Shown here: positions 10,870 to 40,794 of the stretch, piece by piece | Numbering within the stretch: position 1 is the first letter of the stretch | Layout of the letters: each line of letters begins with the position of its first letter | Source of the DNA: Lingula anatina | Lineage: Eukaryota; Animalia; Brachiopoda | NCBI GenBank assembly: GCA_051362555.1 | Contig: CM120645.1 | Span: 13,578,001-13,642,000 of the forward strand | DNA: 64,000 nucleotides | Reading direction: 5' to 3' | Program-made: the position numbers and the translations under genes | The notes under the pieces: model-generated | Databases searched by the model: none | The model's input: only the letters and a program-made list of their open reading frames with translations | What the model was told of the DNA's origin: nothing

Positions 10870-11784
10870 ACCTTATCTGCTGCTTTAAAGAAGTGTCTTA
10901 TAAGTCTCGATTGTGCTTGGAGGTATATCAAACATAAGACGTGCATGAAAATGATATATACAATTTATTCGACAAAAAAAAACATAACAAGCGCATCGTG
11001 CCCTTCACCTCATCGAATAACAGAAAACAAACACAACCGTAAATTTACTCAACAGATAACAGGAAAGTCAGCTATAACAGTCATTTTCTCGTGAATATCA
11101 ATTCAAATAAATAAATAAATAAATAAAATGGTAGGAATGCCAGCATTCATAGCGAAATTAGTCATATTGGCAAAAATGGCTCTACTTCTCAGGTTCTTCT
11201 TCTTTATAAACGTCATGTTGATAGTAAATTAGGAAACATTCTGAGATTACCAAATTAAAAGTCTGTAAAACTCACGTCGTGAAGACGACGGAGAAAATAT
11301 TAACGAGTCACAAATAATATGATAGCATGGTTTCAAACTTGGCTCTTCACTTGACTGGGAAATACTGGAACATGTGTGAAACATGTCATGCCGAGTCTTG
11401 GCCATCTTATGTCAGTGTGGGCGGACTTGATCTTTTTCCGTAGTAATGTCTGACCTCGAATGACTGAAACATAGAAAGTGTATTTTAGGACGAGAGGTTA
11501 CGCAGAGCAAAATATTTTTTGGCAAAAAAAAATTGATGAAAATATTAATTGGCATTACTACAGAGCAAATTAATTTTGCTTACATAAAGATATCTCATTT
11601 GCACAAAGTAGAGACTACTTCGACTTATTCGTAATTGCAGGGATAACATTACTGAATGCTTACATTATGTAGTAACATTGAACATAAATAATGATGCTGA
11701 TTTATCAATAGTGACATTTAATAATGCACCGCAACAGCGGAGGGGCCAGTCATCAATAAAGAGCCAAATACTTTATTTTTCTAA

Positions 11785-12000
11785 GACCCCGTTCGCATAC
11801 CTAGATCGATCTAGCAGGATCGACCCATTCAGCCCATTCAGCTTTAGCTCTGATGTCTGGCACGCCTACTGAAGCTGTTAGGGCGTAATTAACTAACGTT
11901 AAACAGTTTTAGTAGGCGTGCCAGACATCTACAATTTAGCAAGAAACCCCTCAGAGATTCGTCGATTCTGCTAGATCGATCTATGTCTGGGAACGGGGTC
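11785..12000. mobile_element. MITE of the same family, inside the 3' UTR intron of PDZ copy 1
   Basis: TIR GACCCCGTTC...GAACGGGGTC, taa/tat flanks, internal palindrome (gatgtctggcacgcctact...agtaggcgtgccagacatc); shares tagatcgatcta and gtaattaact with the 9859 elements; absent from the other copies. Confidence 0.8.
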
Positions 12001-12170
12001 TATGTCGTTACTTCTTTTGCCTATTAATGAATACTTACAATTGACTTCAGCATCCTGTGTCCCTTAATCACAATCACGTGGAGATGTACATGTGTTGAGA
12101 CCCGCTCCCAAGTTTTTCTTCTCTAAGAGGACCAGACAACGTAGATATGAGGTGTTCGTAGTGGTGGAGA

Positions 12171-36450: not shown

Positions 36451-37484
36451 ACTAATCTACTGCTATGATTTAACTTTGATGAATTTGTTGATATCAAACT
36501 ACTACGATACTTAGATCAGTTGGAATGGCTGAAGACAGGGATTAAAAGTACAAGACTGATGTCAAATACATATAAAATTTATTTAACAAACAAAAACACA
36601 ACAAGTGCGCCGTGGACTTCATCTTACGAAATCAAAGAAAACGAACACAGCCACGAATCTACTCAATAGAAAACAATGAAGTCAGCTTTAACAGTAATTA
36701 TCCTCGCGCATATAAATTCAAAACAAGTTGGTAGGAATGCCAGCATTCGCCACTGTACAAATTATATTGGCGAAAATTGCTCAGTTTCTTGGGTTCTTTT
36801 TCTTTATAAAGATCACACTAAATTCGGTAACATTTCCAGATTATCAATCTAAGTCTTTCAAACTGAAGTCGTGAAAGCGATGAAGAATTCACGTACGTGA
36901 ATGGTTCAACGACTTGGCCTTTCATCTGACTGGGAAATACTGGTGCACGTATATCACAAACATTGCACGGGTCTTGGATATATCAGTGTGGTTGTGGTCT
37001 CTTCCGACAGATTCAAACCATTGCGTCAAAAGAATGATGTGTGTCCGTGAATAACTGAAACGTGGAAAATGTACTTTAAGACGCGGTTCTATATTTGAAG
37101 GAAATATTTACATGAATACATAACATATCGTATTCTTCATCTGGCAACTATTGATAGAAAGAAACTTATTTGCAATTCTATGTATTATATATTTGACTTT
37201 TTACATTATTGAATAACACTAACAATAAAGAAGGATACCGTACCGATATATCAAAAACGACTGTGAAACGCTCATGAAACAATGTTAATAAAATAGTATT
37301 CGACTAATTTCGTTTTATTATTTAATATCCTTAATTTTATTATGTACTTTTATACTTACAATTACTTCAGTATCTTGTCTGTCTTAATCCTAATCATGTG
37401 GAGATGTGCCGAGACCCGCTCCCACATTTCCCCTCTGTGAGGTCCAGACGACTTAGATGCGAGGTGTTCGTATAGTGGTTGACA

Positions 37485-40055
37485 TTATATCTCATTAATA
37501 CTTCTTCTCATGCGGCTGACGGTGGACGTAGAAAACTTGTCATAAGTGTCGGCCTTGATGTCCATGTTGACGTTGTTCACTTTCTTCTTAAGGGTTAGTT
37601 CATAAGACAGGTGTTTGAAGTCGTGAGCTGAAAATAAAAGTATGAAATTATAAGTATAACCTTCTCAGAGTGAGTAAATATTTAAACCTTTCTCAACGTA
37701 TTTTAAATGAAATTATTCTTACCGTAGAATGTTTTGGGCGTTCATGGCGTTCAAATAATGACATATATAAAGTGATATCTTTTAAGGTGACAACCTCGAT
37801 CAACAGATATTATCGTACTGGTAATGTCAAATTCCAATTTCCAACCGATAAAAACTGGAATTCATAGAACTGCTTTGACTTACCAACTTCTGATTCTTCA
37901 TTTTCTTGTCTCCTGTAGATACTGTTGTTAAGGGGTTGTCTATTGGTAGCATCTTGCTGCATTTTTCCTTTAACTTTGCTTATCACTTTCTTGGCCTTGC
38001 GGACTAAAGAATCTGAAGGGAAATCGAAAAGAACTGTTAATGAAATCAGGTATAACTTTGCCTTATTAAGATTAATTTCCTACTAATCACAACTAGCACA
38101 CTTGTATTTTTATTTCATTTTCTTATTTTTTCCTTTATTTGTGGCGTCATTAGCAATAGTAGAAAATGATAAAAAGAAATATGACCCTGATAATGTACAA
38201 TTCCAAAGCTGTCAATCTAAATTAAAACTCACCACCTCTTTTATTCTTCCCGGTCACTGACACACTGGACTGAGCAAGGACTACTGAACAAGGACTGACC
38301 ACCGCTCTGCTGACCACCTAAAACATACAGAATACATATAACGTTAACGTTACAGGAACTCAACTTATTTTTACATTTACGGCATTTACGACATCTAAAC
38401 GTCGGTCTTTAGATCAACATTTTACATTTTATTGTGGTAGCTGAGAGTATGATATCTAAATAAATAAATCAAAGTCTGACACACGAACGATTTGTTTTAT
38501 TTCACCAAATTATCGGGTAAAGGACTAAAGACGTTTGTTCTATTTAAACAATTGGAGGTATTCAACAAATTAAATGGCATTGTTCTTTGGTATCGAAATT
38601 TGTTGTTTAGATATTTGCCGTTCATGTAATATACTCACCATATTCACAGTGTCCCCGCAGTCCACTATTACTTGGATAGCCGTAGACTGGTCAACATGGT
38701 CAAAGGAGTGACCGTTCACACTCAACACACGATCATTTATCCTAAAGAAAAACAAATACAAATACAGACAATTAGTTTTAATGTCCCCTGAATATGACAT
38801 TTTAAAACGATATTATCATAAAGATTTATCATAAAGCAATAAGCATGTTAAATAAGCATGATGAAAATTCTATTTTCAGTGCATATTGAGATTGTGAATT
38901 GATATTACCTGAAGAGCTAACTAGGTATGGGAGAAATTCACATACGTAACTCGTACTGAAACTCGCAAATACACATCTACTAGTTTGATCATATTGCATC
39001 AGAAGTAAAAATACAGAGTGACTTACATTAACTTTCCCTCAGCTGGTCCAATCTTGATGACGTCAGATATGACGATTGAAGGATCACCATTACATGGGTT
39101 GTCATAACCACCACTCACTGCTATACCTAACCCGACCAGACGCATCTACACAAATAAAAAATAATAATAATAATAATAAAAAACAAAAAAACATGATCAT
39201 GGATATCTGGGGAATGTTTTAGGGATGTTGTTACAGTTACACTTTTCAACTTGCTTAAATATCTTTACAAACTTATTAGCAATAAAATGTGTGAAATCTA
39301 AAGAAAAACCAGCCAAAATCTGTGAAACAGAACTAAAAATTGTCGGAGTCAGTACATTTGAGCAGCCTAAACAATAATATACTTTCTATCCAAATCACAA
39401 GTAATGTCATTCAGCTTTAAGAAATTGCGACAATTAAACAAATCAATGCTGAGCGTTTTGAATTAATCAACATCGTTAGTGACTGGGGTCATCTGTTGTA
39501 TACCTATATACACTACGGTAGGCCGATACAGGTTTCTTTTTTTAAGGTGAGCAAAATTATGGAGATAATGTATAAATGCATTTTGAATTAATTGCAGACA
39601 ACTTAACGAAATCTAATTTTTGTTAAAACAAACACTCCATGATTAACGTACCTTGGAGATCTTCACATGATGAGTCTCCCACAAAACTTCCTCTTCAACC
39701 TAGAAAAAGGAAAAACAGATATAAAATAATATATTCGACAAGAAAAAAGACGCATAAATGACAAAAAATCATTTTTTAAATAGAAATCTAACAACAACAA
39801 ATGCCATTTGATATTTAAGTCATTGTTGAAGTAAATAATTTTCATATACAGTAGGCCCTACACGTTCTTTTTATAAAACAATGTATCACTACATTTAAAA
39901 TATTAAAAAATATTTGTGGAAACACATTATAAATAAATAGGGGAATAAATAACACTTCTAAAAGATATGATTCAAACACAATTTTATCAGTACTGTTATA
40001 GTAATAGTACCTGACTCTTCTCTTCTCTCACAACATTACACATCTTCAACTTCAT
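37485..40055 (-). CDS. ZO-1/TJP-like single-PDZ protein, copy 5 (223 aa)
   Basis: Exons 40055-40011, 39699-39652, 39145-39027, 38741-38639, 38317-38233, 38012-37884, 37627-37485; open frame, ends SINEI-TAA. Confidence 0.88.
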
Positions 40056-40794
40056 CTTTTTCTCTTGGAATATCTCTTCTTAACTAGTGAACAACTGAAC
40101 TGCATACAAGGATGACAGGACATGAACTGATGGTAGAACACACTGCAAGCGTGCTTTTATAGACAAGTCACCTGTGATCTTTTGACTACGACAGAAAGAA
40201 CAAATGAAATTAACGATGATCTGTCTGATCAGGTGGCTCGTGCCGCGCGACATCAAAGGCCCGACGTGATTGTTCAATTAATAGTGTAAACAGGTAGTAC
40301 ACTGTTGATTGGAGTTAACTGGGTTACGAGTACCTGTTATATGAAGCCAGTTAACAGGCTATAGACAGTTCATCTCTTTTGTTATACTTTTATGTACTTT
40401 GATGTTAGGTTAATTCCTTTGAATAAGAAAATAAATAATGCCAATCATATATTCGTCGGGAATGAACAGAGGTTGGATAACAAACAAACCACATTTTATC
40501 TCTCTTTCTCTCTCAAAATAAAATAAAATAAAATAAAATAAAATAAAATAAAATAAAATAATAAACAAAGCAAAGTCAAATAGAATAAAATAGAATAATT
40601 CTGAATCATTGTTATCTTTGCCTAACTTTTAAAACTGATGAAGGTCCAAACTCATATGATATATGCAGTTGTTTTATCGTAAATATCAGTACAAAGAATC
40701 CATTGTTCAAAGATGATAAATTATTGCGCAATCGAGTTTCCTACCTAAGCATTTAAAGAGGTGTTTTTCAATTGCTTTAAAGAGTTCTAGCGAA

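Follow-up and report, generated by a model that had tools for sequence, protein, structure and literature searches.

Five closely related genes lie in tandem on the minus strand of a 64,000-nucleotide stretch of the brachiopod Lingula anatina (contig CM120645.1, positions 13,578,001 to 13,642,000; hereafter the window), each encoding a protein of 220–223 amino acids (aa) with a single PDZ domain resembling the first PDZ domain (PDZ1) of ZO-1. Self-comparison of the window reveals five repeat units of 6–7 kb each between approximately 10.9 and 40.5 kb, with one gene per unit, and the gene models rebuilt from the window contain seven coding exons of 45–143 nt in every copy, as the first-pass annotation of this DNA had described them. 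All 30 coding introns carry GT-AG boundaries and their phases are the same in all five copies, every reading frame is open, and the predicted proteins of copies 1 to 5 are 220, 223, 221, 223, and 223 aa long respectively. Coding identity among the copies is 88–95%, with copy 1 the most divergent, and a stop codon is kept in all five (TGA in copy 1 and TAA in copies 2–5). There is also an eighth, non-coding exon in the 3′ untranslated region (UTR), which lies beyond the models as first drawn.

Copy 1 extends from its TATA box to a candidate poly(A) signal at 10964–14877 (coding span 14771–12171), with coding exons at 14771–14727, 14333–14286, 13826–13708, 13471–13369, 13046–12962, 12694–12566, and 12304–12171; its exon 7 ends at 12039 and exon 8 starts at 11463. 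Copy 2 (17449–20931; coding span 20825–18365) has coding exons at 20825–20781, 20494–20447, 20016–19898, 19627–19525, 19206–19122, 18894–18766, and 18507–18365, and exon 8 from 17918, while those of copy 3 (23384–27539; coding span 27433–24309) are at 27433–27389, 27088–27041, 26570–26452, 26200–26098, 25120–25039, 24824–24696, and 24448–24309, with exon 8 from 23860. Copy 4 (29920–33504; coding span 33398–30845), the reference for RNA read mapping, has coding exons at 33398–33354, 33021–32974, 32490–32372, 32107–32005, 31683–31599, 31372–31244, and 30987–30845, and exon 8 from 30391; and copy 5 (36578–40161; coding span 40055–37485) has them at 40055–40011, 39699–39652, 39145–39027, 38741–38639, 38317–38233, 38012–37884, and 37627–37485, with exon 8 from 37054.

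The first-pass annotation had also reported that splice sites and frames are intact, that coding indels come in threes, and that introns are rich in indels and contain miniature inverted-repeat transposable elements (MITEs), and all of this is borne out. Net coding length differences are multiples of three (3 nt fewer in exon 5 of copy 3, and 9 and 3 nt fewer in exon 7 of copies 1 and 3 respectively), with small compensating gaps in pairwise alignments of the divergent exons 5–7 that are possibly alignment artefacts, whereas only 28 of 135 intron indels in copy pairs 1–2 and 4–5 are multiples of three. The three stretches examined contain two MITE-like inserts, one in intron 4 of copy 3 (25221–25708, with 15-nt perfect terminal inverted repeats) and one in the 3′-UTR intron of copy 1 (11784–12001, with 41-nt terminal inverted repeats). 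Exon 4 is 97–98% identical across all five copies, the distant copy 1 included (for example, 32005–32107), and this likeness reflects either unusually strong constraint or gene conversion.

Comparison with Lingula ZO-1 (XP_013406126.2) and its isoform X9 (XP_023930503.1) shows that the five genes are related to it exon by exon and in the same order, as we describe here for copy 4 (all exons on the minus strand). Lingula ZO-1 has several alternative first exons that join just before PDZ1, and its isoforms (P0017, P0137–P0147) show at least six different N-termini before that domain, including a CARD-bearing long form. The coding part of exon 1 (33354–33398) is homologous to the alternative first exon that isoform X9 uses (5 of 11 residues identical at the protein level, p 0.0005 in 2000 shuffles), and exon 2, with 16 residues, starts at the junction where the alternative first exons of ZO join. 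Exons 2–4 (32005–33021) encode a ZO-type PDZ1 with an intact loop motif, a two-residue loop deletion, and a glutamine at position alphaB1; the PDZ1 of copy 1 is 57% identical to that of Lingula ZO-1 over 116 columns. Exon 5 (31599–31683) corresponds to the linker between PDZ1 and PDZ2 and the first PDZ2 strand, with 28 residues as in ZO (matching ZO 297–324), and exon 6 (31244–31372, charge +6) to the C-terminal end of PDZ2 from the helix alphaB region onward, with 14 of 42 residues identical to ZO 366–406 (p 0.0005); this segment is the best match in the whole ZO protein for four of the five copies, while copy 1 is not significant. The coding part of exon 7 (30845–30987) begins with the start of the PDZ2–PDZ3 linker and ends in a conserved C-terminus specific to the family. 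Exons 6 and 7 together match ZO 366–435 in copies 2–5 (p 0.002), and the tails of a sister subfamily described below match ZO 369–434 (p 0.002). Homology to ZO-1 is thus found for all seven coding exons of copy 4 and for six of seven in copy 1 (p 0.0005–0.005).

The 41-residue core of PDZ2 (ZO 325–365) is absent from the short genes, with no remnant in their introns; a tblastn search with ZO-1 found no SH3, GUK, or ZU5 domain in the window, RNA reads pass from exon 7 into the 3′ UTR, and the CARD-type N-terminus of full-length Lingula ZO-1 is absent from the copies. Instead of the three PDZ domains of ZO/TJP proteins, a paralogue model contains one folded domain. It therefore seems very probable, from these alignments, that the short genes represent an internal piece of ZO-1 reaching from the X9 first exon into the PDZ2–PDZ3 linker, from which the core of PDZ2 has been deleted. 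Descent from ZO-1, as first proposed, is well supported, but the proposal that the family was born from the 5′ end of a ZO gene is not, since the copies start at an internal alternative first exon; nor does the PDZ domain carry an unrelated tail, which by sequence comparison is decayed ZO-1, consisting of ZO linker and PDZ2 remnants. Two further candidates for ZO-1 residues were rejected: a weak tblastn overrun that might have made intron 5 a former PDZ2 exon (none of 30 introns is significant, p 0.09–0.93), and decayed ZO coding sequence in the 3′ UTR (none of 10 tests significant against ZO, and one of 10 against protein P0150, discussed below, at p 0.01).

With exon 3 of copy 2 as the query, one of 17 candidates passed, the Lingula anatina RefSeq protein XP_013380822.1 ('ZO-3-like'), whose first 133 residues agree with copy 1 at 131 positions; beyond them the model reads exon 6 in a different frame and ends at 142 aa. 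This frame switch, near the start of exon 6 (window 12694–12640, minus strand), is due either to an error of assembly or to a broken allele. When XP_013380822.1 was used in turn, seven of 22 candidates passed, including three RefSeq genes of 218–220 aa on one other scaffold (XP_013401107.1, XP_013401109.1, and XP_013401110.1/111.1), which form a sister subfamily about 60% identical to the first; the remaining three are ordinary arthropod ZO fragments. Copy 1, the sister set, and ZO-1 lie on RefSeq scaffolds of 936,639, 455,917, and 716,866 bases respectively, so that the parent occupies a separate locus, and tblastn of ZO-1 did not find the parent in the window. The RefSeq copy-1 model matches Pfam PF00595 (PDZ; E 3.7e-14) once, the best PDB matches of the family by sequence and by fold are ZO-1 PDZ1, the best long match of a family profile is Lingula ZO-1 (1646 aa; among the best 120 of 573 passing proteins), and the ESM Atlas gave generic PDZ clusters only. 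These results uphold the assignment to a single PDZ domain of ZO type, and also that of a lineage-specific family, in that homologue and profile searches returned no short member from a named source other than Lingula (among the best 150 of 1460 matches); the tail of the window subfamily was searched through single exons against Pfam and through the sister subfamily in the alignment. Four members are already in RefSeq as automatic models named 'ZO-3-like' or uncharacterized, all from Lingula; the searches returned no RefSeq counterpart of copies 2–5. The family size, eight short genes plus P0150, is a lower bound.

P0150, a protein of 296 aa, was obtained from the full-library profile search (1460 matches at E 0.001, of which the best 150 were considered), and has an X9-type first exon, a PDZ1, and a whole but diverged PDZ2, without the other ZO domains. 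It is 47% identical to isoform X9 over 275 columns, its PDZ1 lacks the same loop residues as the short family and keeps the histidine at alphaB1, and it is the only one of 136 new proteins among those matches with an X9-type start or the loop deletion. P0150 and Lingula ZO-1 also align gap-free at a PDZ2 site that is one residue longer in 72 of 73 ZO proteins, a sign that P0150 arose within the Lingula lineage. In a tree of 30 rows, P0150 and the eight short proteins form one clade (support 100/98), the eight short proteins alone another (98/91), and the whole is sister to Lingula ZO-1 (85/56) inside brachiopod ZO (91/88); trees used 21–28 of the best 120 ZO matches, picked for taxon spread. 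Without P0150 the tree does not fix the sister group, long branches meet, and a clade with Lingula ZO has p 0.33 in an AU test; a tree of P0150 alone with ZO proteins does not fix its position either. Grouping with the species' own ZO, which the first-pass annotation had proposed to examine by phylogeny, is recovered with weak support in the tree that includes both P0150 and the short proteins.

The ligand pocket of the short proteins departs from that of their presumed parent. According to PMC6222848, claudin binding by mouse ZO-1 PDZ1 depends chiefly on Phe34, Asp58, Leu60, Val92, and Arg96, with a moderate role for Arg28; His88 shifts on binding, mutation of Arg96 or Phe34 strongly reduces binding, and the domain also binds phosphoinositides. 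PMC2891790 relates the −2 ligand residue to position alphaB1 of PDZ domains and the terminal ligand residue to betaB1, and reports that ZO PDZ2 forms domain-swapped dimers. We aligned the eight short proteins with 73 distinct invertebrate ZO PDZ1 sequences, over which the pocket barely varies. At alphaB1 (the His88 site) there is a glutamine in all eight short proteins and in none of the 73; a His-Phe pair is deleted from the loop, with the Phe gone in eight of eight and present in 73 of 73; the basic residue at the Arg96 site is lost in all five window copies (Val or Met) and kept in 72 of 73 ZO proteins; and betaB1 (the Phe34 site) is a leucine in four of the five window copies and a phenylalanine in every ZO protein. 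At four positions the window copies (four of the five at betaB1) differ from 72 or all 73 of the ZO sequences, while Asp58 and the Val92 site are kept, as are the carboxylate-loop glycine and hydrophobic positions in all eight, which have the R/K-xxx-x-hydrophobic-G-hydrophobic loop (a motif given in PMC2891790) intact. An AlphaFold model of the paralogue P0003 (52-row alignment), our structural basis in preference to a single-sequence model of P0002 (pLDDT 30), folds only PDZ1, with pLDDT above 90 over most of residues 21–110, and its best fold matches are structures of ZO-1 PDZ1. The simplest reading of the alignment would be a working pocket with a shifted ligand preference; because the residues that changed almost never do so in true ZO, the set of ligands is likely to be different.

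A second departure lies in the tail. The exon-6 segment has a charge of +5 to +7 in all eight short proteins and of −1 to +2 in 73 of 73 corresponding ZO windows, and this PDZ2 remnant rises from +1 in Lingula ZO through +4 in P0150 to +5 to +7 in the short proteins. Its hydrophobic moment is 0.47–0.53 in copies 2–5 and P0003 (near 0.5 in five of eight), and the net charge of the tail is +6 to +13. Basic amphipathic segments often bind anionic membranes, and the remnant, now such a segment, likely tethers the protein to the membrane. The C-terminus, Ile/Val-Asn-Glu-Ile/Leu, is conserved in seven of eight, P0004/P0008 ending in Ser, and the sister subfamily has the same length and C-terminal pattern as the window copies.

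Selection differs along the protein. In the PDZ domain there are 17 synonymous and 12 non-synonymous changes on 60.5 and 203.5 sites respectively (omega approximately 0.21, p 4e-5), as counted from distinct alleles across the five copies with no tree and no transition bias, the seven regions being uncorrected. Omega is approximately 0.98 for exon 5, 0.50 for exon 6 (p 0.02), 0.31 for exon 7 (p 0.002), and approximately 0.19 for the last 20 codons (p 0.08), and pairwise Nei-Gojobori values are 0.20 (PDZ) and 0.47 (tail). Purifying selection acts on the PDZ, in agreement with the earlier suggestion that the genes were amplified under selection, and exon 5 evolves about neutrally.

The 300 nt upstream of the ATG are the most conserved DNA of the repeat unit, with 7–12 variable positions per 100 nt compared with 43–64 in introns, and contain TATA and initiator (Inr)-like motifs at fixed spacing; in the promoter and 5′ UTR of copy 4 (33399–33698, minus strand) the TATA is at −106 and the Inr-like TCAGTT at −75, with two E-box-like sites. 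All five copies have an upstream open reading frame (ORF) of 21–23 codons located 68 nt before the ATG (e.g. 33466, minus strand), beginning a few bases past the Inr-like motif and stopping at or just before the main ATG, and translational control by this ORF is possible. The 3′-UTR intron of copy 4 (30392–30717, minus strand) lies 127 nt past the stop, and its donor and acceptor are present in all five copies.

Nine RNA runs carry the species label, four of which (X1, X3, X4, and X7) were mapped on copy 4 at 85% likeness, using about 6% of runs X1, X3, and X4 and 25% of X7. Five of the six coding junctions are seen in RNA reads (in run X3, six reads for exons 1–2, 14 for 2–3, five for 3–4, five for 4–5, and seven for 5–6), and three reads of run X1 cross the 3′-UTR intron; no reads were listed for junction 6–7, although the two exons are covered and the bin for the intron between them is empty. 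Read strand agrees with minus-strand transcription. Short-family reads occur in two of the four runs (X1 and X3, both of study P1) and ZO-like reads in all four; those of X4 (4 reads) and X7 (28 reads) are partial matches only, whose loose ends match full-length ZO-1 by eye, and X1 and X3 also contain reads with loose ends matching the sister subfamily. The absence of short-family reads from two runs is weak evidence for tissue restriction because the tissues of the runs are not known. Among 40 of the 72 difference positions there are letters characteristic of copies 1, 2, 3, and 5, as well as many that no window copy has. As the animals sequenced for RNA differ from the one assembled, transcription is shown at the level of the family rather than copy by copy; the splice junctions drawn in the first-pass annotation are largely confirmed.

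The array is flanked by tRNA-Pro(AGG) genes at 9300–9371 and 40992–41063, both on the plus strand and forming a direct repeat (97% identical), with degenerate copies inside the array at 15989, 28658, and 34727. A tRNA-Thr(AGT) gene is carried in the repeat unit at 15634–15707 (minus strand), with counterparts at 21681–21754 and 28310–28383 and a decayed copy at 40814–40874; in the same position of another unit ARAGORN identifies a tRNA-Ile(AAT) gene (34368–34441, minus strand), 85% identical to the Thr copies and likely an anticodon switch or a decaying copy. The nearest pair of copies shifts along the unit, being 4–5 in the 5′ half and 2–3 near exon 7, which suggests conversion or recombination. 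Five repeat units between flanking tRNA-Pro genes bear out the tandem amplification first proposed, and the array would have grown by unequal crossing-over.

Taking these observations together, we tentatively favor a reading that we regard as possible and a little short of probable: the genes are 3′-truncated, internally deleted duplicates of ZO-1 whose product serves as a small adaptor or decoy with a single PDZ, which a basic amphipathic helix is predicted to anchor at the membrane and which likely has C-terminal ligands other than those of ZO-1. A ZO-1 segment may have been duplicated together with its internal promoter, giving a PDZ1+PDZ2 form like P0150 that lost two loop residues; the PDZ2 core would then have been deleted and the alphaB1 histidine replaced by glutamine, after which the family may have split into the five-copy array and the three-gene set on the other RefSeq scaffold, and unequal crossing-over, perhaps started by the flanking tRNA-Pro repeats, would have enlarged the array. 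Without the PDZ2 dimer, SH3-GUK, or C-terminal region the protein cannot scaffold, and it would instead block or redirect membrane-protein tails in whichever tissue its promoter is active.

Several observations weigh against this reading. Expression is low, with 74 and 112 reads mapped from about 12 million records, ZO and paralogue reads included, and the stop lies 125–132 nt before the 3′-UTR intron, which could trigger nonsense-mediated decay (NMD), although the rule tying that distance to decay is a vertebrate one. Copy 1 has a frameshift at exon 6 in its RefSeq allele, the hydrophobic moment is lower in copy 1 (0.35) and P0002 (0.26), and the AlphaFold model of P0003 has no helix in the tail (pLDDT 40–54), so that an anchor helix would need to fold on contact. 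The sister relationship to Lingula ZO has weak support (85/56), our site counting is crude in ignoring the tree, transition bias, and correction over seven regions, and the pocket changes could mean lost binding rather than re-tuning.

It is also conceivable, though we consider it unlikely, that the short PDZ acts as a plain dominant-negative competitor that shares its target tails with ZO-1 PDZ1 and prevents scaffolding, much as the first-pass annotation had suggested. Asp58 and the carboxylate-loop glycine are kept; a ZO-1 promoter exon is carried, so that co-expression is plausible; and at position 32450 in run X3, 18 of 22 reads have the short-family letter and four are ZO-like. Junction assembly is delayed by an engineered construct of the N-terminal half of ZO-3 (PMC2169439), and SRGAP2C is an example of a truncated duplicate that counteracts its parent (PMC6169893). 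Four of the six residues tested for claudin, however, differ from Lingula ZO (Arg28 to Lys, Phe34 to Leu in four of five copies, Leu60 to Ile, and the Arg96 site to Val or Met), in addition to the alphaB1 change and the loop deletion, and this weakens the proposal, while that ZO-3 construct is described as retaining all its PDZ domains. The ratio in run X1 is also reversed, with one short-family and 18 ZO-like reads, and with poly(A) bias the 5′ end of the long ZO mRNA is under-represented among the reads.

The same residues raise the question of whether the pocket is weakened or dead, the protein being kept for its fold, for membrane or phosphoinositide binding, or for some other surface. Both Arg96 and Phe34, which mouse ZO-1 needs for claudin according to PMC6222848, are changed in window copies, the mouse domain is reported there to bind phosphoinositides as well, and the tail is net basic; but the carboxylate-binding loop is intact in all eight proteins, and the alphaB1 glutamine is fixed in two subfamilies about 60% identical, which drift would not favor, and we find this account quite improbable. 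The genes could alternatively be passengers, young duplicates riding the amplification of a tRNA cluster, weakly transcribed, degraded by NMD, and slowly decaying. There are indeed tRNA genes in each unit, read counts are low, the 3′-UTR intron and upstream ORF occur in five of five copies, copy 1 has a frameshift in its RefSeq allele, omega is close to 1 in exon 5, and only 2 of 112 X3 reads match copy 4 at 99% or more. Nevertheless, all five frames are open while introns vary at 0.43–0.64 positions per site, the PDZ omega is 0.21, the promoter is more conserved than the coding DNA, the internal tRNA-Pro copies have decayed and the genes have not, and a second subfamily has the same length and C-terminal pattern, all of which makes simple carriage very unlikely. 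A self-binding switch, in which the conserved C-terminus fits the re-tuned PDZ of the same protein to give autoinhibition or head-to-tail chains, agrees with conservation of that C-terminus in seven of eight (and the low omega of the last 20 codons), with a betaB1 leucine, said in PMC2891790 to favor bulky terminal residues, and with the autoinhibited PDZ proteins mentioned there, but appears just as improbable as carriage because P0004/P0008 ends in Ser, the RefSeq subfamily has a betaB1 Phe and yet a terminal Leu, and Asn at −2 falls outside the three classical motif classes given in that paper; a complex prediction of a copy-1-type PDZ with the C-terminal 32 residues of copy 1 (score 0.02, mark 0.34) was counted neither way.

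Around the array, a gene pointing away from it on the plus strand has a probable first exon at 42400–42546 (donor 42547) and a His/Lys-rich exon at 50141–50351; it has no Pfam match and does not match ZO-1, so that it was rejected as the parent. CpG counts fall from about 90–140 to 30–50 per 4 kb past 44 kb, which suggests a methylated gene body. On the other side there are exons of a neurotransmitter-gated ion channel subunit (555–2400, plus strand; PF02931, PF02932), a single-frame rhodopsin-family G protein-coupled receptor, about 590 aa in length, whose third intracellular loop is long (4857–6653, minus strand; PF00001), and a 218-nt element duplicated head to tail at 9856–10295 (99.5% identical), which shares motifs with the MITE at 11784–12001 and to which a palindrome at 35318–35509 is related.

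A bolder version of the truncated-duplicate reading, which we think rather unlikely, would have at least nine small, tissue-restricted junction tuners derived stepwise from ZO-1 by capture of an internal promoter, loss of the scaffold half, removal of the PDZ2 core with release of its helix as a new polybasic membrane anchor, and new ligands through the His-to-Gln change. If true, these would be natural tuners of cell junctions, and the searches made found no such ZO regulator described. The words 'PDZ' and 'tight junction' appear in neither the main text nor the one supplementary file checked of the Lingula genome paper (PMC4595640), and there is no description of such a family among the literature matches listed, subscription journals and bioRxiv supplements lying outside the search. 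ZO-1 is deeply conserved as a scaffold. The parent, the PDZ1+PDZ2 intermediate, and the two PDZ1-only subfamilies form a dated series that bears on how a partial duplicate escapes the role of a poison copy and on how few substitutions re-specify a PDZ domain, and the small, easily expressed members make the question directly testable. As to annotation, the name 'ZO-3-like' misleads, and four copies seem to have none.

The parent itself, ZO-1/TJP1/Polychaetoid, offers the closest comparison, its first exon being of the same type and its PDZ1, linker, and both ends of PDZ2 following one another as they do in the short genes; the latter lack the PDZ2 core, PDZ3, SH3, GUK, ZU5, and CARD, encode approximately 220 rather than 1500–1690 aa, are multi-copy, and have a changed pocket, and by architecture their products are not ZO/TJP members. 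The RefSeq 'ZO-3-like' and uncharacterized models belong to the same family, with automatic names only. Like SRGAP2C and ARHGAP11B, as presented in PMC6169893, the short genes keep an ancestral promoter exon (a protein-level comparison of exon 1 with the X9 first exon, rather than of ZO promoter DNA), have lost downstream exons, and have a transcribed open frame with later changes; unlike them they have an internal alternative promoter, an internal deletion, and at least eight genes, and antagonism of the parent would be suggested by analogy only. They also resemble trans-microProteins, which PMC5381583 describes as having their own gene, one interaction domain, and a stepwise shortening from a multi-domain ancestor of at least 250 aa, but their 220–223 aa exceed the 140-aa limit given there, and their PDZ1 would bind the tails of ligands instead of forming dimers with the parent protein. 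Finally, the engineered N-terminal half of ZO-3, dominant-negative in MDCK cells according to PMC2169439, is likewise a ZO fragment without the C-terminal half; that construct is artificial and keeps its native PDZ pockets, whereas the Lingula genes are natural and encode a single PDZ with an altered pocket.

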